Below are positions 36,923 to 56,036 of a stretch of 64,000 nt of DNA, piece by piece (position 1 is the stretch's first letter; each line of letters opens with the position of its first letter). Origin of the DNA: Candidatus Adlerbacteria bacterium (GTDB lineage Bacteria > Patescibacteriota > Minisyncoccia > Phycocordibacterales > SBAW01); NCBI GenBank assembly GCA_903851045.1, contig CAINNF010000009.1, positions 6,525 through 70,524 of the forward strand, in the 5' to 3' direction. The notes under the pieces were generated by a model, which worked only from the letters and a program-made list of their open reading frames with translations, was not told the origin of the DNA and did not search any database. The translations under genes were made by a program, and so were the position numbers.

Positions 36923-36983
36923 GGTGGTAGTATGGCACCCCCCCCCGCGAGGGGGCAAGGTGTGTATACACAAGACACGCTTG

Positions 36984-37565
36984 CTACAACCCCGTCGCAT
37001 TGAGCGACTCGTTTATCGTACGAGTCAGCATGCGGCGAGACGCCTGGACTCTCTGTACCATGTCTGGCGCGGTGACCGCATCACATAGGTATGGTGCGAG
37101 TTCCGACGTTTGGGGCAGATACCCTAAGTGCGCGAGCATCCGTAGGACGAGCACATACTCGATACTCTCCGCCTCGATCGGATCCTCGACCTGTATCACC
37201 TGTCCGAACCCTTCCAGGAGCGTCTCGTACAGTTCCGGCACCGCCTCCTCGCCATGTATCAATCGAAGTAATAAACGGAGCATCTTCCCTATTTGCGTAC
37301 GACGTGCGGCGCTCGTCGCCGAAAGCGAACGGGAGATGCCTTCGACCCCGGTCAACTTCCACTCGTGGCGCCCACGCACGAGGGAGAACCGAGCGATCGT
37401 GAGCGGTTCCAGACCGAACCGGAGCTTCGACACCTCCTTGCGAGCCGAACGAGCTGCGACACGCACGAGCCCTAGTTCGCGCGTCAGGATCATCACGAGC
37501 GTGTTCGACTCTCCCACGCTACGCTTCCCTACCACCAACCCTTCGGTGACGTGGATCACATGCAT
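36984..37565 (-). CDS. recO: DNA repair protein RecO
   Basis: OB-fold N-terminus 'GLVVGKRSVGESNTLVMILTRELGLVRVAARSARK...FGLEPLT' and 'YVLVLRMLAHLGYLP'. Directly downstream of ileS. Confidence 0.7.
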   Translation of the reverse strand: MHVIHVTEGLVVGKRSVGESNTLVMILTRELGLVRVAARSARKEVSKLRFGLEPLTIARFSLVRGRHEWKLTGVEGISRSLSATSAARRTQIGKMLRLLLRLIHGEEAVPELYETLLEGFGQVIQVEDPIEAESIEYVLVLRMLAHLGYLPQTSELAPYLCDAVTAPDMVQRVQASRRMLTRTINESLNATGL

Positions 37566-40500: not shown

Positions 40501-41131
40501 GGTACGCCTGCGCCACTTCGAAGTTCGAGAGCGTCGTCCCGCAACGCGGGCACAGATGCATCGCCTTGAACCCCTCATAGATCAAATTCTTGTCATACAA
40601 CGTCTTGAACGACCACCACACCGACTCGGTGTAGGTCGCGTCCATCGTCTTGTAGTCATGCTCCATGTCTGCCCAACGACCCATGCGCGGGATGATGCGA
40701 CGCCACTCGTCCGCATAGCGAAGCACCGCGCCCTGCGCCTTGGCGTTGAACTGCTGGATACCGTACTCCTCGATGTCGCGCTTGGACTTAAATCCTAACT
40801 CCTGCTCGATCTGATTCTCCAGCGGCAAACCGTGGCAGTCCCACCCCCACTGTCGTGGCACGTGGTAGCCCTGCATGGTCCGATAGCGCGGAATAGCGTC
40901 CTTGATAGCGCTCTGGAGCAGGTGGCCGTAGTGCGGCAACCCCGTGGCGAACGGCGGCCCATCATAAAAAACATACTCACCCTTGGGCGCAGGCTTCGCG
41001 AGCGACTTCTCGAAGATATGGTGATTGTCCCAGAACTTCAGAACCTCCTCTTCTCGAGCAGCAAAAGGCGACTTCGCCACATACGGCGGCTTCTCCCGCT
41101 CCTCCCCGCCCTGTTTTAAATCGTCTACCAT
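37568..41131 (-). CDS. ileS: Isoleucyl-tRNA synthetase carrying an internal histidine-phosphatase (PGAM-like) domain insertion
   Basis: 'PFATGLPHYGHLL' (HIGH), 'KMSKKLKN' (KMSKS) and CP1/editing blocks. The start is placed at the ATG at 41131 (MVDDLKQGG...). The extra 95 aa up to 41416 are not IleRS-like. Confidence 0.9.
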   Translation of the reverse strand: MVDDLKQGGEEREKPPYVAKSPFAAREEEVLKFWDNHHIFEKSLAKPAPKGEYVFYDGPPFATGLPHYGHLLQSAIKDAIPRYRTMQGYHVPRQWGWDCHGLPLENQIEQELGFKSKRDIEEYGIQQFNAKAQGAVLRYADEWRRIIPRMGRWADMEHDYKTMDATYTESVWWSFKTLYDKNLIYEGFKAMHLCPRCGTTLSNFEVAQAYQDIPDIAVTVKLPLVDEPGTSLLIWTTTPWTLPGNSAAAVNAGATYVKVRTDDGFVVVAKELVVKVFGSDAVKIEGEILGKDLVGKSYEPPFPYFKDLVHKHKTHAWKVYAADYVTLQDGTGIVHLAPAYGAEDLELAQKEKIPLIHHVTDDGRFISTVKDFEHLPVKPKGRHMETDAKIVAYLDAKRLLFKQEKITHSYPHCWRCDTPLLNWAATSWFVNVQDLKQDLLEENKKVRWVPEHVGRGRFHNLLESAPDWAISRSRYWGAPIPVWRNTKTKELKAIGSVDELLSMVRKSGNRYLVMRHGEARSNAENFVNSTNDIENHLTDVGRAEARATAKELALLGVDIIVASPLTRTQETARIVCEELGLSPSSIMTDTRLSETHFGEKNNAPQAEWHAVFATLSDRFNRTVVGGETYDQVFARVGDFLFDIERRYSGKRVLIVTHEIPAWLMQAVAQRTPRHELHDEHRRKLLPTAGWMELMFTAYPHNEHFMLDLHRPFIDEVQLGGGLDGEWKRVTDVFDCWFESGSMPYASHHYPMETDVFNPKGTLGFFAKGYPADFIAESIDQTRGWFYSLIVLGVGLFGKSPYKSVVTNGLVLAEDGRKMSKKLKNYPDPMELVERFGADSLRYYLLSSAVIRGEDLRFAARGVEEVTKKLLMRLDNVRSFYELYATTDAADTTSVGTHVLDRWIISRLGELVRDATKGFESYELDAAARPLASFIDDLSTWYVRRSRDRFKEEGTDKGEALATLREVLVVVAKVMAPVMPFYAEDLYLRVKKSYDQQSVHLCDWPTEIVIDQEVLTRMSYVRSFATMALKQREMAGIKIRQPLRALTIKHFTEKPPLPQEFLDILRDEINVKEVVFKSGVEPGGPGIKLDTATPGEPELDTTLTPELQEEGLVRDFVRSIQELRKNTNLTINDRPVLRVDTNGEGATFFTRFKDTFVRDTNLSDLVIGSSSTDEPTNFPFPASCTLTR

Positions 41132-41260
41132 AATAAAAAGACTATACCACAAAAGGGTTTTCAGAATAGGTCGACCATCCCGCCACACCACCCTACGGCG
41201 GGATTGACAAATGGTATTATATTGGTGTATAATATATCCAGACTGGCAATCCGGCCAGAA

Positions 41261-41551
41261 ATGGAGGTTCTCGTGGAAATCAACTACGCTCTCGGTTTGG
41301 TGACGGTTTTTGTAACCATCGCGGCGCTGCTCCCCGTTCTTTGGCGGGTACTGCCGGGAACCTGGCGGTTCGTGAGTCCCATTGTTTGCGTTGCGGTCAT
41401 CTGCTACGCCTTCCATCTGGGCTGGCCGCTGATCTGGTATTGGCAGCCGGTCGACGGGAGCGTGGGTGATTCATCCATAATCGCCATTCTCGCCTACGTG
41501 CTTGCGATGTTAATGGGCGCGCGGATGGCGGCGGAGTGCCCTTTTTTTTAA
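41261..41551 (+). CDS. Small membrane protein, hypothetical
   Basis: Two or three TM helices, a GGAGG near the start, and a terminator downstream. Confidence 0.4.
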   Translation: MEVLVEINYALGLVTVFVTIAALLPVLWRVLPGTWRFVSPIVCVAVICYAFHLGWPLIWYWQPVDGSVGDSSIIAILAYVLAMLMGARMAAECPFF

Positions 41552-43606: not shown

Positions 43607-44701
43607 CTACAGTGACGAGGATGTGAGCGCGGGTGGCGTGCCGACTTGGGCGCTAAAGGCTATGCGACCGATGAGCTGGCCTCGAGAGGTTTCGACGTTG
43701 CAGCGCCATTGTCCCGGGGTGAGTACCTCGGTGCTCCACCCACGATACCCTTCTGCTCTGCCGCCACTGATCGGGAAGGAGAAGGTCGACTGGAGCTCCC
43801 ACTTACCAGTGTCGGTATCGTACTTCTCCCACGTGTGGACGATCGGTGTCGTGAGGCTGCCGGGCGCGAAGACCGCGCTAAAACAATATGCCTCGCTACC
43901 AGATGTGTAGGTGTAGGTCGACGCCGTATCGCGCCAAAAGACGTACCACGCGGGCGCCTCGTACATACCCACATAGTCGCCCGACGGTAGTTTCGAAATA
44001 GAGTGATAAACGCCAATCCCCTTGATCGACAACGGCACAGGCGGGATGATGTTGAGGAAGTAGAGACCGCTAAAGATGATGAAGATGCATCCGGCGATGA
44101 ACCCCACCTCGAGCACCTGCTTCTTGTCGCGCGCACGGAACGCTGCGACCGACAGTATCCACAAAAAGATACTGATGACACCAAGACTGATAGCGCCGCT
44201 TATCACAAACACTTGCGCGCCGATAGCATGCAGCAGGAACGTGGGCACCGCTATGATGCAGTACGTTAGCAGCAGGAAGTAGTAGATGGCGATGTTGAGT
44301 CGCAACAGTTGATACCGTCCCTTGAGGAAATCGTTCCCCAGCGCGAACGCCGCGAGCAATACCACGAAGAGAAAGCTGCCGCCCAGGGTGCCGCTTTTCC
44401 CGTACAGTATCAGCAGGTTGTTCGCAAGGCCACCGAAGCAGAATTGGAGAACAAGCAGGAGCGCGAGCGGCTCGACCGGATGTTGCTTCTCCTCCTGTCG
44501 ACGCGACTGACGCACGTTGAGGAGTATGATGACCGCACCGCAGATAAAGAGGTACGTGAGCAGCAAGATATTGTCGACGACACTATCGGGCCGCTTCGCG
44601 AGGTACAGGTCGAACGCAAACCCCGTCACCAAACCGACAAAGTTGATGATACGTGAATGCTTCTCCCACAACATGAGGAGCCTCTTCCCAAGACCTTTCA
44701 T
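43607..44701 (-). CDS. Polytopic membrane protein with a C-terminal extracellular beta-rich domain, hypothetical
   Basis: 364 aa, about seven TM helices, then a soluble roughly 120-aa tail. Confidence 0.6.
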   Translation of the reverse strand: MKGLGKRLLMLWEKHSRIINFVGLVTGFAFDLYLAKRPDSVVDNILLLTYLFICGAVIILLNVRQSRRQEEKQHPVEPLALLLVLQFCFGGLANNLLILYGKSGTLGGSFLFVVLLAAFALGNDFLKGRYQLLRLNIAIYYFLLLTYCIIAVPTFLLHAIGAQVFVISGAISLGVISIFLWILSVAAFRARDKKQVLEVGFIAGCIFIIFSGLYFLNIIPPVPLSIKGIGVYHSISKLPSGDYVGMYEAPAWYVFWRDTASTYTYTSGSEAYCFSAVFAPGSLTTPIVHTWEKYDTDTGKWELQSTFSFPISGGRAEGYRGWSTEVLTPGQWRCNVETSRGQLIGRIAFSAQVGTPPALTSSSL

Positions 44702-44725: not shown

Positions 44726-45988
44726 TTACACGAATGTATCGGGGATTGGGAACTTCGCGCACAAATCTTTTATTTCTTGGTGCACCGCTTTGAGCGTCAC
44801 TTCGTCATCCTTCCCTTGCAGCGCCTGGAGCATCAACTCGGCGACTCGGGTACTCTCCTTCTCGGTGAATCCGCGCGTCGTGATGGCGGGTGTGCCGAAG
44901 CGGATACCAGAGGGGTCCATAGGTGAGCGCGTGTCGTCGGCGATAACGTTCTTGTTGAGCGTGATGCCGACAGTGTCGAGGACCTTCTCCGCCACCTTGC
45001 CGGGGATAGCGAGCGAGCCGAAGACGTCGGCAAGAATAAGATGGTTGCTGGTGCCGCCGCCGAGCATGCGCACGTTGTTGGCTTTGAACACCGCCTCCAT
45101 GGCTTTGGCGTTCGTAAGGATCTGCGCCGCGTACGTTTGGAACGACGGGTGCAGTGCTTCGCTGAAGGCGACCGCCTTGGCGGCGATGACATGCATCAGC
45201 GGCCCACCCTGGAGCCCAGGGAAGATTGCTTTGTCTATCTTCTTGGCAAGCTCCTCAGATTCGCGCGTGAGGATTATACCGCCGCGCGGGCCCCGGAGCG
45301 TCTTGTGCGTCGTGGAGGTCATGATGTCGAAGCCGTAATCGAAGGGGTTCTTTGCCGCCTTGCCCGCGATGAGTCCCGCGATATGAGCGGCGTCGATGAC
45401 CGCGTAGGCACCGACCTCGCGCGCGATGGCGACGAACTTCGCGTAGTCGAGCTCGCGCGAGTAGGCGGAAAATCCGGCCAAAATAATCTTCGGCTTGTGC
45501 GCCTTCGCGACCGCGAGCATGTCGTCGTAGTCGATTTCACCCGTCTCAACATCCTTCATTTTGTAGCGGACAAAGTTGAAGAACTTGGTGATATAGGTCA
45601 CCGGGTGGCCGTGCGTCAGATGGCCGCCGTGGGAGAGATCCATTCCGAGCACGGTGTCACCCGGTTGGAGCAAAGCGAAGTACATACCGATATTTGCGTT
45701 AGCGCCCGAGTGCGGCTGCACATTGGCGAACGATGCGCCGAACAATTTCTTCACGCGCTCGATAGCGAACGCCTCTGCTTGGTCGGTGAACTCCTGCCCG
45801 CCATAGTAGCGCCTCCCTGGGTACCCTTCGGCATACTTGTTGGTGAGAATGGAACCTTGCGCTTCGCGCACCGCTTTGGACACGTAATTCTCCGACGGAA
45901 TAAGCTCGAGCCCCTCTCGCTCACGGGTCTCCTCACCCTCCAGAGCGGCGAATAATTCCTTGTCTTGCTTTTTGATTGCGTCGTACAT
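44726..45988 (-). CDS. glyA: Serine hydroxymethyltransferase
   Basis: 'LELIPSENYVS', and the PLP-lysine region 'TTHKTLRGPRGG'. Confidence 0.95.
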   Translation of the reverse strand: MYDAIKKQDKELFAALEGEETREREGLELIPSENYVSKAVREAQGSILTNKYAEGYPGRRYYGGQEFTDQAEAFAIERVKKLFGASFANVQPHSGANANIGMYFALLQPGDTVLGMDLSHGGHLTHGHPVTYITKFFNFVRYKMKDVETGEIDYDDMLAVAKAHKPKIILAGFSAYSRELDYAKFVAIAREVGAYAVIDAAHIAGLIAGKAAKNPFDYGFDIMTSTTHKTLRGPRGGIILTRESEELAKKIDKAIFPGLQGGPLMHVIAAKAVAFSEALHPSFQTYAAQILTNAKAMEAVFKANNVRMLGGGTSNHLILADVFGSLAIPGKVAEKVLDTVGITLNKNVIADDTRSPMDPSGIRFGTPAITTRGFTEKESTRVAELMLQALQGKDDEVTLKAVHQEIKDLCAKFPIPDTFV

Positions 45989-46047: not shown

Positions 46048-46476
46048 TTATATCCCGGTCGTGCCGAACCCGCCGCGGTCGGGCGTGTCGAGCGAGTCGA
46101 CCTCCTGCCACGACACACGGTCAAAGGGCAGTAGCATCATCTGCACCACACGTTCACCACGCTTCACCTCGACGGAAGCGTCAGTGAAGTTGTAGAGCGG
46201 CGCCTTGTATTCGTCCTGATCGCCCGAGTAGTCTTCGTCGCCGATACCGACCGCGTTGGCGGTCATGAGTCCCCGCTTATGGAGCGAGGAGCGCGCCGCC
46301 AAAAAAACGAAGTACCCCTTGGGTGGCTTCACGGCGATATTGAGCGACACCATCGCGACCGACTTCGCTGGCACGATGACATCCTCGCGCACCACACAAT
46401 CCATCGCCGCCGCACCGGTCGTTTTATACTCCGGCAGCGGCAACCCCTTGTCGAAGCGTTTTATCTGGACATCCAT
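46048..46476 (-). CDS. dut: dUTP diphosphatase
   Basis: 142 aa, 'GAAAMDCVV', 'ARSSLHKRG', and a C-terminal 'RGGFGTTG'. Confidence 0.9.
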   Translation of the reverse strand: MDVQIKRFDKGLPLPEYKTTGAAAMDCVVREDVIVPAKSVAMVSLNIAVKPPKGYFVFLAARSSLHKRGLMTANAVGIGDEDYSGDQDEYKAPLYNFTDASVEVKRGERVVQMMLLPFDRVSWQEVDSLDTPDRGGFGTTGI

Positions 46477-46571
46477 GTGGGTATTCTACTCCAGGACCCG
46501 AACAGCGCACACCATTGACTTGAGGGCGACATGAGCTATGCTAGCCCGTGGATGAAAGGGGGTGATATTGA

Positions 46572-46997
46572 GTGAATAGTATCCAAGCGTGGGTACCGTT
46601 GGCGTTTTTTGGTCAACTGCTTCCGTTCAATATGGAACTGATTAACGGAAACGCCACGATTCTGCGCGCCTGCGGTGCACAACTGAAAGATGGGAGCATT
46701 CTTCGTTCGCGAGAGTACATCCTTTTCGGACATGGTATAGCAACCATAGCACCACATGCAGCAGCACTCTCCTGCAGAGAAGTACTCGGCTACAACATGG
46801 ACTTCGAATGCAAGAGGGACAGACGGGGGGTTGTCTGCTTTGAGGTAAACGTCTCACGACCACAACGATCTCGAGAACCGTGGGAATTGTGCGTCTCAGA
46901 CGCAACACCCGAGACAAGCGAAGGGATACACATCATTAGACTTTGCTCCGTCGAAGGCGACCCAGGACAGTACTTCTATCTGTCCAGAATCGCTTAG
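46572..46997 (+). CDS. Hypothetical protein (weak call)
   Basis: An ORF in a lower-GC stretch with no recognisable motifs. Confidence 0.3.
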   Translation: MNSIQAWVPLAFFGQLLPFNMELINGNATILRACGAQLKDGSILRSREYILFGHGIATIAPHAAALSCREVLGYNMDFECKRDRRGVVCFEVNVSRPQRSREPWELCVSDATPETSEGIHIIRLCSVEGDPGQYFYLSRIA

Positions 46998-47107
46998 TCG
47001 ATAAATGCCTGCATCATAACCGAGGTAAAGTCGTCTTCCCCATGCAGCCCCAAAGGGGCTTTCCCTATGCGACGATCACCCTCCCTCACCCGAAGGGACT
47101 GATCGTC

Positions 47108-47599
47108 ATGCGTACACTTGTGTATATCTCCGGCGCTCTTTCAGATGTGCCGGCAGACATTCGAGACCACTACCTCACCTTCTACGAGTTGTTGGGGCAG
47201 GTGGTGGAAGTTGCGGGTCTCATGGCGTATGTGCCACACCAGAACACCGACCCGGTGCGACACAAGGATGTCACGCCAAGACAGGTCGACCTCATCGACC
47301 GCACCGCGGTCATGTCGTCGGTCTTGGTCGCCGCGGTCGTCGACAACCCGTCGCTCGGTGTCGGCATCGAGGTCGAGATGGCCTATCACGCCGCCAAACC
47401 GGTCGTGCTGCTGTGCCACCACGACCGTCTCGCGCAACGGCGCATTAGCCGCCTCGTCCGGGGCAACCCCGCAGTGGTGCACGAAATCGTGTACACCTCG
47501 CGGGAGGATGCGTTGGAGCAATTCGCCGAGTTCCTTCGTACGTTCCTGAGGGAGCAAACGGAGGGGATCCTGCCGCGGTCGCTTCAACCAACGAGATAA
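47108..47599 (+). CDS. Nucleoside 2-deoxyribosyltransferase-like protein (DNPH1/Rcl-like)
   Basis: 'VYISGALS...', 'VMSSVLVAAVVDNPSLGVGIEVEMAYHAAKPVVLL' matches the family core. The ATG at 47108 is preferred; the ORF track starts at 46943. Confidence 0.55.
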   Translation: MRTLVYISGALSDVPADIRDHYLTFYELLGQVVEVAGLMAYVPHQNTDPVRHKDVTPRQVDLIDRTAVMSSVLVAAVVDNPSLGVGIEVEMAYHAAKPVVLLCHHDRLAQRRISRLVRGNPAVVHEIVYTSREDALEQFAEFLRTFLREQTEGILPRSLQPTR

Positions 47600-47605
47600 T
47601 GTGCT

Positions 47606-47640
47606 GGGCCGCCTTCGACACCGAAGGCGGCCTTTTTTCT
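47606..47640 (+). terminator. Intrinsic terminator
   Basis: gggccgccttcg-acac-cgaaggcggcc-ttttttct. Confidence 0.7.
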
Positions 47641-47715
47641 TGTACCGTACAATTGCCTTTTCCAAACAAACACGTTAGGTTTGAGGTCGGCACCTTATGA
47701 AAGGAACGAGTCGCC

Positions 47716-48342
47716 ATGTGCGCTCATACGGACACCGCATCGCTCGAGTCTGAACTTACTCACTTGCCGGAGACATTCCCCGGATTGGAACAACTATCTG
47801 ACAACACCCTTTATCTGCTCAGCTGTCGTCATTTCGTACAGTTTTGCGGTACTTACCGGTCGATCATGAATCCGGCGGTGTTTTGTCTCTTCTGTAACTT
47901 CCGCGACTTGGTAGAACGCCAACCAATTCATCGGATCGGCGGGTGGTATGTGAAGCCGAGCGATTACAAGTACGACCACCACGAGCACCAGTTCGTTCTC
48001 TTCCCCGCCAGACACGTAACATCTCTACAGGAACTCACCGACCAAGACGCTATGGACCTACTCCGTCTGGAGCAGTGGTTGTACAAAGAATTCGATCTCG
48101 ACGGGTGTTCAAGCGTCATGCGATCGGGCAATCCGAGGAGACATGTCGGGACCGTTCCCCACATCCACAAACTGGTCAATGTCCCAGATGGACACGGACC
48201 AGCTATGGCGTATTTCGGAAAGACCATCGAACACTGGACTGCTGACTACCAAAGAATGCTGATATTCCTGGCCGAGATCGATCGTCGAGGTGGTCTGCCA
48301 TGGCTCCTCACCGATGGGGTCGTCATTGAGGATTTTGGCTAA
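47716..48342 (+). CDS. HIT/GalT-superfamily-like protein (divergent), monocistronic
   Basis: 'VFCLFCNFRDLVERQPIHRIGGWYVKPSDYKYDHHEHQFVLFPARHV' resembles a HIT N-terminal half-barrel, followed by a degenerate His motif 'VPHIHKLV'. Confidence 0.45.
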   Translation: MCAHTDTASLESELTHLPETFPGLEQLSDNTLYLLSCRHFVQFCGTYRSIMNPAVFCLFCNFRDLVERQPIHRIGGWYVKPSDYKYDHHEHQFVLFPARHVTSLQELTDQDAMDLLRLEQWLYKEFDLDGCSSVMRSGNPRRHVGTVPHIHKLVNVPDGHGPAMAYFGKTIEHWTADYQRMLIFLAEIDRRGGLPWLLTDGVVIEDFG

Positions 48343-48357
48343 TCGACCTTACGACAA

Positions 48358-48390
48358 GCGCCCGCCATCACCGGCGGGCTTTTCTTTTTC
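48358..48390 (+). terminator. Intrinsic terminator
   Basis: gcgcccgcc-atcacc-ggcgggc-ttttctttttc. Confidence 0.7.
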
Positions 48391-48417
48391 GAATGTGGGA
48401 ATGGTATCATTGGCCGC

Positions 48418-49308
48418 ATGAAACCATACGCCGAGCGCACGCCCGATTATCAGTATCGTCAATTACTGGAGCGGATCATGAACGAAGGTCGCGACACCAT
48501 GCCCATACATGGCATTGGTGCACGTGGCGTGGTCGGGCACCAAATCCGCTACACGATGGAGAACGGCTTTCCGCTCATGACCGAGCGCGACTTGGCACGC
48601 ACCTTCCCCGGCGCACTGGGCGAACACATCGGCTTTCTCAACGGTGCACGAACGCTCGAGGATCTCAAAAAATATGGCATGCCCGCGATATTTTGGGACC
48701 GGTGGGTCACCAAGGAGAAGTGCGAGATTTTCGGGCTGCCCGAAGGTGACCTTGGTGACGGTTCCTATGGCGCCGCCTGGGGCAGCTTCCCCACTAAAGA
48801 GGGCGAGCCGTTCAACCAGATCGCGCACGTGGTGCAGCAGATCAAAGAGCGACCCTATTTGCGCACGCACTTCGTGTCACCATGGATACCGCAGTACACG
48901 CTCCAACACGAAGGTCTGACGCGCAAAGTCGTCGTGGCGCCGTGCCATGGATGGATGCATATCTTCACTTACCCCGACACGAAAGAGTTGGTCATCCACC
49001 ACTTCCAGCGCAGCGCCGATGTGCCGATCGGTGTCGTCTCCAACATCGTACAGTATGCGGCGTTCGGTATGATGCTCGGCCAGGTCATCGGGTATACCAT
49101 GAAGGAGTTGGTGCATACGTTCTCGGACGCACACATCTACCACAACCAGTTCGACGCGGTGCAAGAACTTCTTGCGCGCGAACCAAAGCCCTTCCCCACC
49201 GTGACGCTTGACCCGACCATCACCAACATATTCGACTTTCGCCCGTCTCACTTCACACTTACCGATTACGAACCACACCCCAAAATGGTCATACCGACCG
49301 CGATATAG
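48418..49308 (+). CDS. thyA: Thymidylate synthase (ThyA family, divergent)
   Basis: Catalytic 'VVAPCHGW', 'FQRSADVPIGVVSNIVQY' (R166/S167/D169/N177 equivalents), 'SDAHIYHNQ', and a folA gene nearby. The N-terminal Arg-loop (RTGTGT) is not conserved. Confidence 0.8.
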   Translation: MKPYAERTPDYQYRQLLERIMNEGRDTMPIHGIGARGVVGHQIRYTMENGFPLMTERDLARTFPGALGEHIGFLNGARTLEDLKKYGMPAIFWDRWVTKEKCEIFGLPEGDLGDGSYGAAWGSFPTKEGEPFNQIAHVVQQIKERPYLRTHFVSPWIPQYTLQHEGLTRKVVVAPCHGWMHIFTYPDTKELVIHHFQRSADVPIGVVSNIVQYAAFGMMLGQVIGYTMKELVHTFSDAHIYHNQFDAVQELLAREPKPFPTVTLDPTITNIFDFRPSHFTLTDYEPHPKMVIPTAI

Positions 49309-49310
49309 CT

Positions 49311-49793
49311 ATGAGAAAAAAAGATTTCGTCGACATCAAGGCCGCTGGGGACCGAGTCGAATACGCAACGGTGCTTACAAAGATCAAGAAGGATGGGGTA
49401 TGTCCGTTCTGCCCCGAACACTTCAAGTACCATACGCGCCCGATACTACGCGATGGGAAGTATTGGCTCGCGACCGAGAACATGGCTCCGTACACGGGGA
49501 CGAAACACCACTTCTTACTCCTACACAAAAAACATATCGAACATGTGACTGACATCTCGCCCAAGGCGTGGCAAGAACTCCTCTCACAGATACAGTGGCT
49601 GTGTGAGACGTACAAACTTCCTGCAGGGAGCTTCTTTATGCGATTCGGCGATAAGCGATACACTGGCGCGAGCGTCACCCAACACCTCCATGCACAGATG
49701 TTTATCGGCTCCCCAAAAAGCAAAAAGACCTACCCACTCACTCCTATACTTGGGTACAGCACTAAAAAATACGTCCCGCCGCAGAAAAGCTAA
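49311..49793 (+). CDS. HIT/GalT-like nucleotide hydrolase or transferase with an H-x-H-x-Q motif
   Basis: 'CPFCPEH...' Cys pair and 'TQHLHAQMF' (H-phi-H-phi-Q). Its start lies 2 nt after the thyA stop. Confidence 0.5.
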   Translation: MRKKDFVDIKAAGDRVEYATVLTKIKKDGVCPFCPEHFKYHTRPILRDGKYWLATENMAPYTGTKHHFLLLHKKHIEHVTDISPKAWQELLSQIQWLCETYKLPAGSFFMRFGDKRYTGASVTQHLHAQMFIGSPKSKKTYPLTPILGYSTKKYVPPQKS

Positions 49794-50641
49794 AGCCCCT
49801 GCACAAGGATGATCTCTACGCCAGCGTTTTTAAGGATCCCTTCCGCATCGAGACGCGAGTACCCTTGCGCGTAATACACATGTGAAATGCCTGAGCGCGC
49901 GATGAGGAATGCGCAGTTGATACAGGGGAAGGTGCTCGAATAGAGCGCTGCCCCGACGAGCGACACCCCTTCGCGAGCAGCTCGCGCGACTATACCAGCC
50001 TCCGCATGCATCGAAATGTAGAGGTCAGGACGCTCGCCGAAGTCGACCGTCGTGCGCGGTGTACCAAAAATGTCGAGCGCGAGGTCCGAAGGAAAGTATG
50101 CGATGTGCGATGCAAATACGAGGACCTTGTCCCTCACCAACACCGCGCCTATCTGCCGCCACCAGTCGGCACTCTTCTCTCCCTCGTGCACAGCGGCGCG
50201 CATGAACGTGCGGTCGAGCTCCTCCACCGAGACGGTGCGGTCGGGTGGCACCTCGTTCTCTTTGTTGGAGAACACGCCATCCCAACGTAGGAATATGTTC
50301 TGCAGTGTCACCGAGGCGTCCCGTGGTATGTGTTTTTCGGCGAAGTCTCGTGACACATCCTCGTCGGGGAGGACGATCTGTCCGAACGGAGACAACACTT
50401 CGACATCGGCAAGTTCGATGACCGACGCCTGATACCCGAGCGACCGAAGAGCGGCGACGGCGCTCATAGGGTCGAGCGCGCGGATGTCTCGGTTCAGCCG
50501 CGGATACGCATCGATGAAACTCTTCCCTAATACGAAGACGGTGGCGCCGGGGTGCGCGTTGAAAAAAGAGATATACCCCGCATGGAGCGCTGGCACGTAT
50601 GCGACGATCGCTTTATTGATTATGGAATTTGTCGAGTGCAT
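49790..50641 (-). CDS. dCMP/cytidine deaminase domain (C-terminal) fused to an uncharacterised N-terminal domain of about 140 aa
   Basis: Zn-binding 'SMHAEAG' and 'TFPCINCA' lie in the C-terminal 140 aa. The N-terminal half has no recognised motif. It overlaps the upstream gene by 29 nt. Confidence 0.7.
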   Translation of the reverse strand: MHSTNSIINKAIVAYVPALHAGYISFFNAHPGATVFVLGKSFIDAYPRLNRDIRALDPMSAVAALRSLGYQASVIELADVEVLSPFGQIVLPDEDVSRDFAEKHIPRDASVTLQNIFLRWDGVFSNKENEVPPDRTVSVEELDRTFMRAAVHEGEKSADWWRQIGAVLVRDKVLVFASHIAYFPSDLALDIFGTPRTTVDFGERPDLYISMHAEAGIVARAAREGVSLVGAALYSSTFPCINCAFLIARSGISHVYYAQGYSRLDAEGILKNAGVEIILVQGL

Positions 50642-51227
50642 TTTTTACTACTTGCGGGATACCGTGCATGATCTCCCCCGCCAACTGGTCCGCACCGTTG
50701 ATGGTGAGTAGTCGGATCCGCGCGGTCGTCGAGGTCGTCGCCTGTGGCGGCAACACGACTATCTCTCCGCACAGCTGCGTATATAGATCTGCCTCTTTTT
50801 TTCCGAAATCGGCGGTCGACTCCGATGTGATGAGCACGTGCGGCTTAACCACCTCTATGAGGTGCCCGATAGGATGATGCGAGTAGCGAAGCGTGAGGAT
50901 GCTGACCGAACGCAGATGTGCGAGCATTTGCAGTCGCTCCGCTTCCGGTACCACCGGCCGCTGTGGACCCTTTCGCTTTCGCGTGAGCTCGTCGGAATCG
51001 ACGCCGACCACGAGTAGGTCTCCGTAGGAGAGCGCCTTCTCGAGGTAGCGGGCGTGACCTTCATGCAACAAATCGTACACCCCCTGGGTCAGCACGAGAC
51101 GATACCCCATTCGCTTGAGATCATCGACGACTTGTCCCAATTCGGTATAGTCAGGAATATAGCGGTCCGCAAGGTTCGACCCCGAGGAAAGGATGTTCTT
51201 GATCGTCACCCGTTGTATGGTCGGCAT
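50613..51227 (-). CDS. Cytidylyltransferase-like nucleotidyltransferase (HldE domain II / TagD-like)
   Basis: 'LTQGVYDLLHEGHARYLEKA' (H-x-G-H) and 'LLVVGVDSDELTRKRKGPQRPVVPEAER'. The ATG at 51227 is preferred; the ORF track extends to 51440. Confidence 0.65.
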   Translation of the reverse strand: MPTIQRVTIKNILSSGSNLADRYIPDYTELGQVVDDLKRMGYRLVLTQGVYDLLHEGHARYLEKALSYGDLLVVGVDSDELTRKRKGPQRPVVPEAERLQMLAHLRSVSILTLRYSHHPIGHLIEVVKPHVLITSESTADFGKKEADLYTQLCGEIVVLPPQATTSTTARIRLLTINGADQLAGEIMHGIPQVVKNALDKFHNQ

Positions 51228-51291
51228 GACGTAATGAAACCATGCCCCAATTCGCTTTGCAAACTTCCCAACCAAAGGACATACTGTCCGT

Positions 51292-51792
51292 ATGCACAGC
51301 ACTTGCGTCAGCATAATCGCCGCACTCGGGAAAGACCGCGCCATCGGCAAGAACAACCGCCTTTTGTGGCATATCCCGAGCGACCTCAAGCGATTTAAGA
51401 CACTCACGCTTGGGCACCCGGTCATTATGGGACGCACCACGTTCGACTCGATCGTCGCTCAGCTCGGCAAGCCGCTCCCCGGACGCACCAACATAGTCCT
51501 CACGAGAGATACGACCTGGCAGTACGAGGGTGCCACGGCCTGTCACTCGATCGAAGAAGCCCTCGCCAAAGCGGAGGAAGTCGACCACGAAGAGGTGTTC
51601 ATTATCGGCGGCGCACAAATCTACGCGCAAGCACTCCCCTTCGCCAACCGGCTCTATCTCACCCTCGTCGAGAGCGATACCGAGGGCGACACATTTTTCC
51701 CTGAGTACGAAAATCTATTTATCAAAAAAGTATCCGAGGAATCGCACGAGGATGAGCCTATCCCCTATCGTTTTGTGACACGAGAGAAATAA
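51292..51792 (+). CDS. folA: Dihydrofolate reductase
   Basis: 'SIIAALGKDRAIGKNNRLLWHIPSDLKRFKTLTLGHPVIMGRTTFDSI', 'IIGGAQIYAQALP'. Confidence 0.85.
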   Translation: MHSTCVSIIAALGKDRAIGKNNRLLWHIPSDLKRFKTLTLGHPVIMGRTTFDSIVAQLGKPLPGRTNIVLTRDTTWQYEGATACHSIEEALAKAEEVDHEEVFIIGGAQIYAQALPFANRLYLTLVESDTEGDTFFPEYENLFIKKVSEESHEDEPIPYRFVTREK

Positions 51793-52362
51793 CTATCGCA
51801 CCTCCAACTTCAAAAAACTACGAAAAAGCTCGTCACCAAATGTTTGCTCAAGCATCTTTTCGGGATGAAATTGGAACCCATAGATAGGGCGGCTTCGGTG
51901 TCGTATCACCTCTGGACCATGTATCGAGCGAGCGAGGATTTGTAAATCGGGCGGCACCGTGTCTATGGCCCAGCGGTGGGCGTCGTACACTTCGAATTGT
52001 CTTCGTCCTAAAAAGAGTGGGTTGTCCGCTACCACTTCGACTTCGACACTGTCGCGCTTTTGGCTCCCCTCCCCTCTATCTCGCAGACTCCCACCAAACG
52101 CGACCGCGATCAACTCACAGCCGTAACAAATCCCCAAGACGGGGATGTTGCTCGTCTGGATGAGTGCAATTTCATCCTTAAGCTTCTCGCGATTATAGAC
52201 AACGGGGAATTGGCTACTTCCCGACAGCACAAGTACATCAAAATCATCTGTGCACAGCTTTGCGATGTCTGCATACCCGACCACCTCGCACGAAGCCCCG
52301 TCGAGCAGCGACAGGATCTTGTCTGGACTTGATGCACCATTGTTTATGATGGCAGCGCGCAT
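51793..52362 (-). CDS. Class I glutamine amidotransferase-like protein (stand-alone GATase1)
   Basis: 'VLGICYGCELI' (nucleophile Cys) and 'FQFHPE' (His/Glu). The ATG at 52362 is preferred; the ORF track extends to 52440. Confidence 0.65.
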   Translation of the reverse strand: MRAAIINNGASSPDKILSLLDGASCEVVGYADIAKLCTDDFDVLVLSGSSQFPVVYNREKLKDEIALIQTSNIPVLGICYGCELIAVAFGGSLRDRGEGSQKRDSVEVEVVADNPLFLGRRQFEVYDAHRWAIDTVPPDLQILARSIHGPEVIRHRSRPIYGFQFHPEKMLEQTFGDELFRSFLKLEVR

Positions 52363-52372
52363 ATAGTCATAT

Positions 52373-53275
52373 TTACAACAACCCGCCCTCAAGTAGACGA
52401 AATTCTTTGTTGGTCTCCCAGATATGTTTGAGCTCGTCAAAGTTGTCGTCTGGTTTTTGCATCAACTGAGCGAGGTGGTCGATTTGTTCCAGCTCAGTCG
52501 AAGTAAGTTTTTCAAATACTTCAGGGAGAGCGCAGTGCGGATGGTGCGGATAGATACACTCGTTGTTCATGATGCAGTGGAAGTCGTAGAACAGCGACCA
52601 CAGTATCACGATCGTGCCGCGAATGGGCAACGCGTTCCAAAAACGCTGCGGGTCGTCTGTGCCAGCACGAATCGCGAGCCATGCGTCCGCAGGGAAATCG
52701 AAGACGCCCTCGGGCATGTCATATGGGTCAAAGTCGGCATCAAGACTCAAACTCCCGTCCACGTCGATAGTCACCCAGCGACTCTCCTTCGCGTGCCAAT
52801 ACTGCGCTATCCAGTGGTCGGCACTCACCTTACCCACTTCGCCCATATCGAAATAGGGCGCGTTGCCCGAGCGGACTCGCGCAGGAATTCCTTTCGATTT
52901 TAAAATACTCGCCACCATCACATGGACAAATCGGCACGTGAGCACAAGCTTGTCCTCTGGCTTGCGGTCATGCACCAACCCGCGCTGGTCGCGCCGATAC
53001 AGCTCGGCGAACATCGCCGCAGCGGTCACCAAAATGTCGTCCTCTGGTTGGCGCCACCACGGGACACGGGTCATATCGCCAAACCGCAGATCAGCATTCG
53101 ATCCCACATTCCCCTCAGCGAGCGTGGTGCGATGGATCACGTTTTGGCGCATCAACAACCCCAACTCCCGAACATCGTCCGGTAGGTCGCGCACCAGGAG
53201 GTCTTGATAGAGTCCCGGGTAGGTGTAGGTACTGAACGCGAGACAGTGTTGTAACATAGCATCGTCCATGCGCAC
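52373..53275 (-). CDS. Transglutaminase-like superfamily protein (Cys-His-Asp core)
   Basis: 'LTCRFVHVMVASILKSKGIPARV' then 'HWIAQYWHAKESRWVTIDVD'. Confidence 0.55.
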   Translation of the reverse strand: MRMDDAMLQHCLAFSTYTYPGLYQDLLVRDLPDDVRELGLLMRQNVIHRTTLAEGNVGSNADLRFGDMTRVPWWRQPEDDILVTAAAMFAELYRRDQRGLVHDRKPEDKLVLTCRFVHVMVASILKSKGIPARVRSGNAPYFDMGEVGKVSADHWIAQYWHAKESRWVTIDVDGSLSLDADFDPYDMPEGVFDFPADAWLAIRAGTDDPQRFWNALPIRGTIVILWSLFYDFHCIMNNECIYPHHPHCALPEVFEKLTSTELEQIDHLAQLMQKPDDNFDELKHIWETNKEFRLLEGGLL

Positions 53276-55202: not shown

Positions 55203-56036
55203 CTACCGTATCTCGTAGGTAATGGAAACGTCGTCTTGGACCTTGTTTTGACCGGTCGAAATTTCGGGAGCTGCGGCAGCCTTGGAGTCCATTGCCGCAG
55301 TAGCCATGCCGTACGCCATAGGCATCACATACCCAGAACTATTCTCATTAAATGAGGTGACACGCACCAGACTCACCCCGAGAGAGTCGGCGAGCTTCTG
55401 AGCCTTTTGCTTCGCATCCGCTATGGCTTTGTCGCGCACCTGTTGCTGCACGCCCGTCGGGTCGTCGAACGTAAAGTTGAGACTGCTGACCTCGGTCGCC
55501 CCTTTCGTCCCGACACCAGCAAGCAAATCTCCCGCTTTCGACGTGTCGTGCACTTTCACGGTCGTCGTCTGACGCACCTCGTATCCCTTGAGCACTTGGC
55601 GTCCTGGCGGACAATAGACCGCATCGGGGGTGTTGGTCCCAGCAGATACAGGAGTGGCCACCGGGCACACCGCCGTCTGGTACTCGTATCGTGGCGACAC
55701 GGAGTAGTCGGTGGTCTGCATATCCCTATCGGCGATCCCCTGTGCCTTGAGATAGTCGGTGACCGCGTTCGCTTGTGCGGTCGCATCAGTTTGTGCGGCT
55801 GCTACGGTCGCCTTATCGGACACGACCGAGAACGTGAAGGTAGCGACATCCGGCTTCGCCAACAACTCTCCATGCCCCGAGACGGTGACGGTGTTGGTCG
55901 CTGCCACCCCTGCCCCGATGTATCGCATGCCCTCTACACTCACGAGCGATTGGACCGCTAAATAGACCCCGAGCAGCACCGCGACCGTGAGTAGTGCTTT
56001 GCGCAGTCGCTCACCTGTCGTACCGTCAAATGGCAT
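55203..56036 (-). CDS. SIMPL-domain (DUF541) periplasmic or surface protein
   Basis: An N-terminal anchor, then 'VTVSGHGELLAKPDVATFTFSV' and a C-terminal 'DSLGVSLVRVTSFNE'. Confidence 0.75.
   Translation of the reverse strand: MPFDGTTGERLRKALLTVAVLLGVYLAVQSLVSVEGMRYIGAGVAATNTVTVSGHGELLAKPDVATFTFSVVSDKATVAAAQTDATAQANAVTDYLKAQGIADRDMQTTDYSVSPRYEYQTAVCPVATPVSAGTNTPDAVYCPPGRQVLKGYEVRQTTTVKVHDTSKAGDLLAGVGTKGATEVSSLNFTFDDPTGVQQQVRDKAIADAKQKAQKLADSLGVSLVRVTSFNENSSGYVMPMAYGMATAAMDSKAAAAPEISTGQNKVQDDVSITYEIR

Follow-up and report, generated by a model that had tools for sequence, protein, structure and literature searches.

A thymidylate-cycle gene cluster of a Parcubacterial genome with conserved HIT-fold and cytidylyltransferase-family members as putative dCMP or dUMP suppliers

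The window considered here, a stretch of 64,000 nucleotides in all, comes from a small-genome Parcubacteria (Kaiserbacteria-like) bacterium, and the region listed in Table 1 is a thymidylate-cycle (dTMP synthesis) cluster. A preliminary description from the sequence alone had named most of these genes and pointed to a small-genome organism; ORF and family searches placed the named genes at or close to the positions given there, bore out the HIT, deaminase-fusion and cytidylyltransferase calls, and agreed with a bacterium of the Parcubacteria/Kaiserbacteria type. The thyA and HIT-B genes run convergently with ctp and dcd, while folA lies alongside, divergent from ctp across 64 bp. The ATG of HIT-B follows the thyA stop codon by 2 nt (TAG-ct-ATG), and the two genes are translationally coupled. 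The ctp gene overlaps the start of dcd by 29 nt and is likewise coupled to it in translation; a ctp start at 51440 was rejected in favour of that at 51227, and orthologues of the resulting 204 aa exist. The terminator that the preliminary description had assigned to the Ndt-like gene corresponds to a hairpin at the expected place. The ORF beyond dut is one that we take to be glyA, partly on our own reading of its sequence; serine hydroxymethyltransferase, the glyA product, supplies 5,10-methylene-THF.

Table 1. Genes and terminator-like features of the region, in coordinates of the window.
Feature	Coordinates	Strand	Evidence
glyA (serine hydroxymethyltransferase)	44726..45988	-	420-aa ORF; call from own sequence and relatives
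dut (dUTPase; dUTP to dUMP and PPi)	46048..46476	-	Pfam dUTPase 2.5e-17; TIGR00576 92 bits
Doubtful ORF, 141 aa	46572..46997	+	Without Pfam or NCBIfam match
Ndt-like gene (nucleoside 2-deoxyribosyltransferase/DNPH1 superfamily)	47108..47599	+	Pfam Nuc_deoxyrib_tr 19.8 bits, below gathering score 28.8
Terminator-like hairpin 3' of Ndt-like gene	47606..47633	+	12-bp stem with 9 GC pairs, then T run
HIT-A	47716..48342 (probable start M at 47866)	+	Monocistronic; hhalign to HIT-B family
Terminator-like hairpin 3' of HIT-A	48360..48379	+	7 GC pairs, then T run
thyA, folate-dependent thymidylate synthase	48418..49308	+	Pfam 210 bits; TIGR03284 177 bits, above cut-off 108
HIT-B	49311..49793	+	Hint/Fhit-type profile matches; motifs CPFC and HLHAQ
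dcd fusion (N-terminally extended dCMP deaminase)	49790..50641	-	Pfam dCMP_cyt_deam_1 at residues 142-258
ctp, cytidylyltransferase family (ECT/HldC/TagD-like), 204 aa	50613..51227	-	Pfam CTP_transf_like 3.9e-15
folA (dihydrofolate reductase)	51292..51792	+	Pfam DHFR_1 9.1e-54, 182 bits
GATase1, stand-alone class-I glutamine amidotransferase/Peptidase_C26-like	51793..52440	-	Pfam GATase 1.1e-23; Peptidase_C26 6.7e-14
Transglutaminase-core-like gene	52373..53275	-	Pfam Transglut_core 19.9 bits, below gathering score 23

ThyA shares 31% identity with the E. coli enzyme, and C146, H147, E58, W80, W83, Y94, R166, S167, D169, N177, H207 and Y209 are invariant among 65 Patescibacterial and 38 high-GC sequences. 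Asn177 has been described as the rule by which ThyA enzymes distinguish uracil from cytosine, marking dUMP specificity (bioRxiv 10.1101/2024.12.05.627091). With all catalytic residues and this asparagine kept, the protein is, judged by its residues, most probably an ordinary thymidylate synthase. Among the Patescibacterial sequences R21 is replaced by Ile in 60 of 65 and R127' by Thr in 62 of 65, and these proteins belong to a divergent clade marked by R127'->Thr and, additionally in Patescibacteria, by R21->Ile. Natural loss of R127', one of four phosphate-binding arginines, is shared with the VAAP-clade ThyA of Vibrio parahaemolyticus, which is active as a thymidylate synthase despite that loss (PMC6005164); the VAAP enzyme, however, has Gly at this position where the present clade has Thr, and the Patescibacterial members also lack R21, a loss not reported for the VAAP enzyme (PMC6005164).

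The two HIT-like ORFs do encode proteins of the HIT fold, as initially proposed. HIT-B scores below the Pfam gathering score; its family profile matches Hint/Fhit-type PDB chains (E 4e-6), and its AF2 model (pLDDT 91.9) matches Hint1/HinT with a Foldseek probability of 1.0; it is a divergent protein of true Hint-like fold and a putative nucleotide hydrolase or transferase. Like the Hint/HinT and Fhit branch (nucleoside phosphoramidases and ApnA hydrolases), it is one domain of ~150 aa, sharing the fold, a zinc-type CxxC motif and a nucleophilic His in the middle position, the latter invariant in the HIT-B family; it differs from them in its fixed gene context beside thyA and, from Hint, in an Arg within the MRFGD segment, which a visual alignment pairs with the part of Hint that bears the Asn. 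The window protein shares its HLHAQ and CPFC motifs with the GalT/Ap4A phosphorylase branch (HxHxQ), and Rv2613c of that branch is among its Foldseek matches, but HIT-B is a single small domain as against the duplicated GalT architecture, and its GalT matches are marginal (E 0.09-0.35). The Gln, a trait of the GalT branch, is not conserved across the family either: the third His position holds Gln, Asn or His by lineage, with HVHAH in high-GC members and the full HxHxH triad in distant ones. The HxHxQ motif that had been called GalT-like is a local derived trait, and both HIT genes stand nearer the Hint/Fhit branch than GalT. HIT-A (motifs CLFC and HIHKL), for which a Pfam search gave no match, is related to HIT-B by BLASTP (E 7e-9) and to the HIT-B family profile by hhalign (98.4% probability, E 4e-15). 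Replacement of the third histidine is also known from the MccH clade of HIT hydrolases, which remain catalytic with this change, confer immunity to microcin C-like aspartamide-adenylates and include stand-alone Parcubacteria genes (bioRxiv 10.1101/2020.03.04.977132); HIT-A and HIT-B, however, have neither the ExxxxxHxHxK motif nor the His->Phe change by which MccH is defined.

The dcd fusion joins an N-terminal domain of ~135 aa (PxxHxGY, RDxR, PDED, FLRW) to a dCMP deaminase domain (HAE...PCxxC), and it is matched best, in sequence as in fold, by true dCMP deaminases. The zinc site HAE and PCxxC is common to known dCMP deaminases (ComEB, T4 cd, human DCTD, PBCV-1 bi-DCD), from which the protein differs in its additional domain, one without known relative. 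This domain, which had no Pfam or PDB match, is new and Rossmann-like, and almost all of its 412 cluster representatives have the same architecture of N-domain plus deaminase. In ctp the HEGH and STT motifs are intact, and HxGH, the KG..RP segment and STT are invariant across the family; these are shared with ECT/Pcyt2, CCT, TagD and HldC (RfaE domain II), with profile E-values of 1e-13 to 1e-29 (human ECT 3.8e-29, HldC 5x9q 5.6e-26). It departs from that family in an N-terminal extension of ~40 aa and in being always coupled to a dCMP deaminase. One natural fusion of ctp and deaminase in a single protein (P0210) was found, which may be an indel artefact between overlapping genes.

The core of the cluster recurs widely. 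Every Patescibacterial locus not cut by a contig end holds thyA, HIT-B, ctp and dcd (66 loci, of which 64 hold HIT-B, 61 dcd and 58 ctp, each absence lying at a contig end), ctp adjoins dcd wherever it occurs (58/58), and HIT-B lies downstream of thyA in 63 of the 64 loci that hold it, remaining linked to thyA where gene order is shuffled. A second HIT paralogue, of the HIT-A type, was present in 16 of 67 loci compared, and by count from the listing thyA is bracketed by two HIT genes, as in the window, in 11 of these 16. Unbiased clustering of ORFs found only the core-module families to be universal, and their linkage persists while folA, glyA, dut, flanks, order and orientation change. The folA gene is present in 49 of 66 loci at variable position and strand; glyA relatives (tblastn) are a frequent but movable neighbour of thyA (36/66); dut lies near thyA in 19 of 66, with a gap of only ~45 bp in the closest relatives; and among the thyA neighbourhoods of relatives, 8 include FolD and 6 include Tmk. 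The arrangement ctp–dcd / HIT–folA–thyA is found again in soil metagenome contigs of 70–75% GC, with flanks that differ from those in Patescibacteria and neighbours of free-living type; here ctp adjoins dcd in 53 of 53 loci, HIT and thyA are both present in 33 of 35, and folA stands within a thyA-folA-HIT operon. A thyA-folA operon is seen in distant loci as well. A five-gene core (thyA, folA, HIT, ctp and the N-terminally extended dcd) is common to Patescibacteria and this unrelated lineage. Its recurrence in ~60 Patescibacterial and ~50 high-GC metagenome loci is far beyond chance, and comparative genomics shows HIT, ctp and the deaminase N-domain to be integral members of the module. The salvage module of host-dependent bacteria, one of the readings first offered, is weakened because the five genes also occur together in these free-living-type bacteria. 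Literature searches found no description of the thyA-HIT or deaminase-cytidylyltransferase arrangement, in line with the original impression of novelty.

The enzymes and logic of canonical thymidylate cycle operons (thyA-folA in many bacteria; T4 td/frd/cd; glyA, dut) are common to this cluster; here, however, an HIT protein, a cytidylyltransferase and a deaminase with an N-terminal extension are always added, and ThyA is of the clade with R127'->Thr. It is strongly supported that dCMP deaminase and dUTPase make dUMP, that ThyA methylates dUMP to dTMP while methylene-THF is oxidised to DHF, and that the cofactor is regenerated by FolA and GlyA, joined in relatives by FolD; some relatives also have Tmk nearby. 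The dCMP-deaminase route would need dCMP as its input, and we infer that HIT and ctp putatively supply dCMP or dUMP. In such a scheme ctp would convert (d)CTP and a phospho-alcohol to (d)CDP-X and PPi, and the HIT enzyme would release dCMP (or dUMP) from the activated conjugate through a covalent NMP-His intermediate. In phage contigs TS, dCMP deaminase and PRA-PH co-localise, so that these modules, like the present one, place a nucleotide-cleaving partner with a TS homologue; the partner, however, is there a MazG/PRA-PH pyrophosphatase and here a cytidylyltransferase (plus HIT), which may take the place of such MazG/PRA-PH-type dCTPases. A two-enzyme route from dCTP to dCMP is less parsimonious than one Nudix or MazG enzyme. 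Taken as a whole, a thymidylate-cycle cluster with HIT and ctp as putative dCMP or dUMP feeders is the reading that we consider probable, with a sizeable margin of doubt.

That HIT and ctp are instead unrelated housekeeping genes, a generic Hint-type phosphoramidase and an envelope glycan or teichoic acid enzyme of the HldC/TagD type held in place by inherited synteny, is unlikely, though it has some arguments: the best scores of ctp are to RfaE domain II/HldC, ECT and TagD, public pipelines label it ADP-heptose synthase (HldC), HIT-B resembles generic Hint proteins, and half of the loci have the conserved rplK-nusG block next to the cluster. Yet ctp reaches only 99 bits against TIGR02199 (HldC equivalog cut-off 181.5), overlaps dcd and is once fused to it, and the linkage withstands both the shuffling of neighbours and the change of flanks in the unrelated high-GC lineage. 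The preliminary description had singled out the coupling of thyA to HIT and the overlap between the deaminase and cytidylyltransferase genes; both are conserved in relatives, so the partners are not housekeeping genes that lie there by chance. A regulatory role appears less probable still: ctp and the N-domain would act together as a nucleotide sensor, binding dCTP or dTTP in place of the classical allosteric site of dCMP deaminase, with HIT modulating ThyA or clearing an inhibitory nucleotide. Cytidylyltransferases do bind CTP or dCTP, the ctp-dcd coupling is tight, and the N-domain is Rossmann-like, has its strand 1 followed immediately by a HIGH-like PxxHxG[YH] motif and is almost confined to dcd-type deaminases; however, every catalytic motif of ctp is invariant, as expected of an active enzyme, the HIT nucleophile is likewise invariant, and hhalign did not link the N-domain to ctp (0.9% probability).

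Synthesis of a modified pyrimidine by a ThyA-type reaction had also been proposed initially; in the fuller form of this reading, 5-hydroxymethyl- or other modified dUMP/dCMP from the ThyA homologue would be elaborated by HIT and ctp, as in phage DNA hypermodification. The divergence of ThyA with its substituted arginines, the unusual nucleotide-handling partners and the DNPH1/Ndt-like gene in the window are compatible with it, but Asn177 and all residues of reductive methylation are invariant, DHFR, needed only if DHF is produced, is an operon partner, and the Ndt-like gene is not conserved. Genes for 5-HMUDK, aGPT-Pplase and glycosyltransferase were not seen among the recurrent neighbourhood families, and IMG/VR yielded no relatives of HIT-B or the dcd N-domain. 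An ordinary ThyA, its clustering with DHFR, SHMT, FolD and Tmk, and the lack of phage relatives together make a base-modification pathway very unlikely. Anti-phage nucleotide depletion, after the manner of dCTP deaminase defence (AvcD/DCD), is effectively refuted: the deaminase does match the NCBIfam 'anti-phage dCTP deaminase' and PADLOC dCTPase models, but over only ~65-70 residues of its core (57.6 bits, where the cut-off is 400), its N-terminal domain is different, with no P-loop kinase-like domain detected, and dcd is universal and single-copy amid thyA, folA and ribosomal genes.

The 7 kb regarded at first as one unit are conserved in their core only. Relatives of the Ndt-like gene, the 46572-46997 ORF, GATase1 and the transglutaminase-like gene were found in 0 of 66 related loci; the Ndt-like, GATase1 and transglutaminase-like genes are local insertions outside the conserved module, and the ORF, for which Pfam, NCBIfam and the 66 loci gave no homologue and which may be no gene, is part of an insertion particular to this lineage that separates dut from thyA. 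The best NCBIfam match of GATase1 is GMP synthase subunit A (84 bits, below the cut-off of 198). The Ndt-like protein has weak PDB matches to NDT 7m5h (E 0.0018), Rcl/DNPH1 and BlsM, and its SLGVGIE segment aligns with SLGVGYE of DNPH1.

The gene order around thyA follows from the ORF listing and profile scans (see the table) and confirms the preliminary description as an observation, its operon details being correct. Between the stop of thyA and the ATG of HIT-B, the downstream member of the two HIT-family genes flanking thyA, lie 2 nt, in keeping with the translational coupling described for this pair, and the overlap of the dCMP deaminase gene (dcd) with the cytidylyltransferase-family gene (ctp) amounts to 29 nt of the dcd start. 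Strong terminator-like hairpins occur 3' of the Ndt-like gene, to which a terminator had been ascribed, and also 3' of HIT-A. The ctp product is 204 aa long rather than 275, with 204-aa orthologs covering it end to end, and from this start the gene does not overlap folA. Downstream of the transglutaminase-like gene follow rplK and nusG, and an Rfam scan of the region at gathering thresholds returned no riboswitch or other RNA. A DUF2914 membrane protein (43607-44701, minus strand) is encoded upstream of glyA and conserved in 8 related loci, and a SIMPL/DUF541 protein (55203-56036, minus strand) is encoded downstream of nusG.

Genes in and around the thyA cluster, with window positions and supporting evidence
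Gene	Position	Strand	Evidence or remark
glyA	44726-45988	-	420-aa ORF; relatives adjoin thyA in 36 loci
dut	46048-46476	-	Pfam dUTPase 2.5e-17
ORF without support (141 aa)	46572-46997	+	zero profile matches
Ndt/DNPH1-like	47108-47599	+	19.8 bits in Pfam, under the gathering score; weak PDB matches
HIT-A	47716/47866-48342	+	HIT-B paralog
thyA	48418-49308	+	210 bits
HIT-B	49311-49793	+	HLHAQ, CPFC
dCMP deaminase with N-terminal extension	49790-50641	-	deaminase domain = residues 142-258
ctp (cytidylyltransferase)	50613-51227	-	CTP_transf_like
folA	51292-51792	+	182 bits
GATase1/Peptidase_C26-like	51793-52440	-	GATase 1.1e-23
transglutaminase-core-like	52373-53275	-	19.9 bits, under the gathering score

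A ThyA scan with one genome per species recovered 63 loci, all from Parcubacteria-type MAGs and with 47-91% identity, the closest ThyA relatives being found in Kaiserbacteria. When these loci were searched by tblastn with the window proteins, the order thyA(+), HIT-B(+), dcd(-), ctp(-) proved to be kept in essentially all of them; among 66 loci HIT-B is present in 64, dcd in 61 and ctp in 58, and wherever one of the three is missing the contig runs on for less than 1.3 kb past thyA. When all ORFs were clustered without bias, ThyA, HIT, ctp and dcd were the only near-universal families; folA (49/66), glyA (36/66) and dut (19/66) are common neighbors that vary in place and strand. The 7 kb once regarded as a single island are not conserved as a unit: none of the 66 loci contains the Ndt-like gene, the 141-aa ORF, GATase1 or the transglutaminase-like gene and, as dut and thyA are only ~45 bp apart in the closest relatives, these four represent local insertions. 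A second HIT gene of the HIT-A type is carried by 16 of 67 loci, 11 of which have thyA bracketed as in the window, and a third, more canonical HIT gene is found in six further loci. Even the most distant HIT-B homologs (33-39% identity) still lie with thyA, folA, dcd and ctp, in a changed order. Other recurrent neighbors are FolD (8 loci), Tmk (6 loci) and a CofE-like gamma-glutamyl ligase (7 loci).

This last neighbor is an F420_ligase family protein (e.g., L026:4232-4990, in one of the related loci), and the GATase1 gene of the window, tail-to-tail with folA, also matches Peptidase_C26 (gamma-glutamyl hydrolase), a pairing that hints at the handling of folate polyglutamate tails. The Ndt-like gene, which has its own terminator, scores 19.8 bits against PF05014 (gathering score 28.8), weakly matches NDT, Rcl/DNPH1 and BlsM in the PDB and keeps the SLGVGxE nucleophile motif of the DNPH1/Rcl dNMP N-glycosidases; these features suggest membership in the nucleoside 2-deoxyribosyltransferase/DNPH1 superfamily and nothing narrower. 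The 1.9-kb dut-thyA stretch that holds it is missing from the closest relatives.

A metagenome scan with P0299, a divergent high-GC member of the family of deaminases carrying the N-terminal domain, yielded 80 soil loci (L092-L171), nearly all of 70-75% GC (mean 71%). In these, ctp->N-dcd (the deaminase gene with its N-terminal domain) is convergent with thyA->folA->HIT; ctp adjoins dcd in all 53 of the 53 loci with room for it, and both HIT and thyA are present in 33 of 35. The flanks encode a tricorn protease, a Ser/Thr kinase, a PabA-PabB fusion, flavohaemoglobin and CcdA (e.g., L110:13572-15809), and from these flanking genes the carriers are free-living-type bacteria with large genomes. 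The suggestion of a salvage module typical of host-dependent bacteria is weakened, as the same five genes occur in this lineage, and the module is therefore no peculiarity of such bacteria.

Few pathways are understood as well, or targeted by drugs as often, as dTMP synthesis. The interpretation first given to the cluster is partly supported: the canonical part of the cluster is ordinary, and the linkage of HIT, ctp and the N-domain to it is conserved. The canonical thymidylate cycle, dCMP/dUTP -> dUMP -> dTMP with the cofactor recycled by DHFR and SHMT, is well supported. ThyA exceeds the cut-offs of PF00303 (210 bits; cut-off 24.3) and TIGR03284 (177 bits; cut-off 108), stays below those of more specific PRK equivalogs and shares only 31% identity with the E. 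coli enzyme. Across 65 Patescibacterial and 38 high-GC ThyA sequences, Cys146/His147, Glu58, Tyr94, Trp80/83, Arg166, Ser167, Asp169, His207 and Tyr209 are invariant, as is Asn177 (65/65 and 38/38), the residue that marks uracil (dUMP) versus cytosine specificity in TS (bioRxiv 10.1101/2024.12.05.627091). In distant relatives DHFR is an operon partner of thyA, which indirectly supports the predicted reductive methylation yielding dTMP and DHF. The window ThyA departs from the four-arginine phosphate site (R21, R126', R127', R166), retaining R126' and R166 and carrying R21->Ile and R127'->Thr; the former change is found in 60/65 and the latter in 62/65 Patescibacterial sequences, so that a natural loss of two of four 'invariant' phosphate-binding arginines is documented. 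L. casei R179', equivalent to R127', is reported to be tolerant of mutation, and an active natural ThyA with R127'->Gly exists (PMC6005164). Because the catalytic residues and Asn177 are invariant and substitutions at R127' are reportedly tolerated, we read the arginine losses, from the sequences compared, as a signature of the ThyA clade and not as a sign of another substrate. R21 we take to be L. casei R23, where substitution is presumably tolerated as well. The idea that loss of R21 universally marks HIT-linked ThyA as having an altered phosphate pocket was rejected, since the high-GC lineage retains R21; the only change common to both lineages is R127'->Thr, at a position where substitutions leave ThyA active.

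HIT-A and HIT-B are paralogs (BLASTP E 7e-9; HIT-A against the HIT-B family in hhalign, 98.4% probability, E 4e-15). Their placement in the HIT superfamily fails with Pfam PF01230, for which HIT-B reaches 20.8 versus 21.5 and HIT-A gives zero matches, and succeeds with a family profile, the one built from 32 HIT-B homologs matching Hint/Fhit-type proteins in the PDB (E 4e-6). The AF2 model of HIT-B (pLDDT 91.9) has the predicted HIT alpha+beta fold, and Foldseek aligns it with Hint1/HinT at probability 1.0 and a target-normalized TM-score of ~0.7. Within the HIT-B family, CPFC is invariant, as are the first two histidines of the HxHxHxx triad, whose middle His is the nucleophile in the superfamily, and Q, N or H fills the third position; this residue is Gln in HIT-B (HLHAQ), Leu in HIT-A (HIHKL) and His in distant and high-GC members, the latter having a complete triad, mostly HVHAH. 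By this residue pattern HxHxQ is a derived trait, and the GalT-like reading once attached to it, along with GalT-type transferase chemistry, was rejected at the family level, Gln being no family trait and distant members carrying His. The GalT branch also differs in its duplicated half-barrel of about 320-350 aa, whereas HIT-B is a single 160-aa domain, and GalT chains match HIT-B marginally (E 0.09-0.35). The MccH clade, defined by an ExxxxxHxHxK motif and loss of the N-terminal His (bioRxiv 10.1101/2020.03.04.977132), does not accommodate this family, in which that motif is absent, the third triad position is Q/N/H and H67/H75 are conserved. A role for HIT as a thymidylate kinase bypass was rejected, since 6 loci have a Tmk gene next to the cluster.

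The ctp product is predicted to be a classic cytidylyltransferase-family enzyme: it scores 56.7 bits against PF01467 (cut-off 21), H55, G57 and H58 of its HxGH motif are invariant, the STT-type C-terminal motif is present (QATTSTTARIR), and its profile matches human ECT (3.8e-29), HldC (5.6e-26), and TagD and CCT (1e-13 to 1e-14). Assignment to HldC/RfaE domain II, a heptose-1-P adenylyltransferase, is not supported, with 99.1 bits against the TIGR02199 equivalog (cut-off 181.5) and none of the ADP-heptose partners (GmhA, GmhB, HldA-like) among the recurrent neighborhood families; the name 'rfaE domain II' given by annotation pipelines is probably a mis-annotation. In the deaminase the zinc site (HAE/PCxxC; H212, E214, P239, C240, C243) is invariant, T4 cd is the top PDB sequence match, the top fold matches are the S. 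mutans, T4, S-TIM5, human and PBCV-1 enzymes, and its nearest relatives are genuine dCMP deaminases (ComEB/DCTD type). Its N-terminal ~135 residues are confidently modeled as a five-strand beta/alpha domain with conserved PxxHxG[Y/H], RDxR, PDED and FLRW motifs. A Pfam scan of 22 members gave zero matches to this N-domain, two profiles (one diverse) found zero relatives among PDB sequences, Foldseek with the whole deaminase model returned deaminases only, and hhalign against the ctp family showed no relationship (0.9% probability). Among 1.84 billion cluster representatives the N-domain has 412 matches, nearly always in the same architecture. A single representative, P0210 (469 aa), joins ctp, N-domain and deaminase in one protein; it could be a true fusion or an indel artifact between two overlapping genes, and it supports a physical or functional unit of ctp and the N-domain deaminase.

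HIT, ctp and the N-domain are new components in a known pathway cluster, and literature searches on the HIT/ctp/thyA linkage found no description of it. Since dCMP is what the route requires, it would most plausibly be supplied by ctp and HIT, ctp converting (d)CTP into a (d)CDP-X from which HIT would free the monophosphate; in phage dCMP-deaminase/TS modules, the place proposed here for the pair is filled by PRA-PH/MazG-type enzymes. The specific working mechanism, a two-step dCTP->dCMP 'pyrophosphatase by proxy', is put forward tentatively and with considerable doubt. It is far less probable, indeed very unlikely, that thymidylate is made on a carrier by a route common to Patescibacteria and the high-GC soil lineage. 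In that case ctp would move dCMP from dCTP to a phospho-alcohol, the resulting dCDP-X would be the substrate of the N-domain deaminase and possibly of the arginine-depleted ThyA, and dUMP, dTMP or dTDP would then be freed by the HIT enzyme; free dUMP/dUTP would not build up, and the route would be a previously unrecognized one.

As rival explanations, the linkage could reflect synteny alone, a sensor with a regulatory role, modification of bases, or defense. Synteny alone has to be set beside the breadth of the pattern, in which two enzyme families and one novel-looking domain are linked with thyA, folA and dcd in almost all testable loci of two unrelated bacterial lineages. Base modification, raised earlier as a pathway to a modified pyrimidine deoxynucleotide, finds little to draw on: N177 is kept, no 5-HMUDK, aGPT-Pplase or glycosyltransferase genes are among the recurrent neighborhood families, and an IMG/VR search returned zero relatives of HIT-B or the N-domain, on which ground phage origin and hypermodification were rejected. 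For defense, the deaminase does match PADLOC, over residues 210-279 only, and the anti-phage dCTP deaminase (AvcD/DCD) profile NF041025, with 57.6 bits versus a cut-off of 400 and over profile positions 337-401 only; the deaminase core alone matches, the full-length match with the N-terminal kinase-like domain fails, and a defense role was rejected on that ground. The linkage suggests an unrecognized step, most plausibly dCMP supply to deaminase-dependent thymidylate synthesis, or else regulation of that step. The HIT subfamily and the 'rfaE domain II' gene thereby gain a concrete functional context, and high-GC carriers may be culturable, which would make experiments possible.

Elsewhere in the window, the 23S rRNA gene (3729-7220, minus strand) measures 3492 nt versus a 2925-nt model and therefore holds ~570 nt of insertions; inside it ARAGORN calls an unusual 'tRNA' whose anticodon has 4 nt (4183-4270). 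A 5S gene (3492-3605, minus strand) follows the 23S, and, as there is no 16S within the 64 kb, the rRNA genes are not linked. Positions 14819-18469, 34412-37000 and 32415-34370 encode two very large PG_binding_1 proteins and a DUF11 protein. A histidine-phosphatase domain (His_Phos_1, PF00300, 6.3e-31) occupies residues 607-773 of the isoleucyl-tRNA synthetase ORF (37568-41416, minus strand, 1282 aa), with the N-terminal portion of the class I catalytic core on one side and the remainder of the enzyme on the other.
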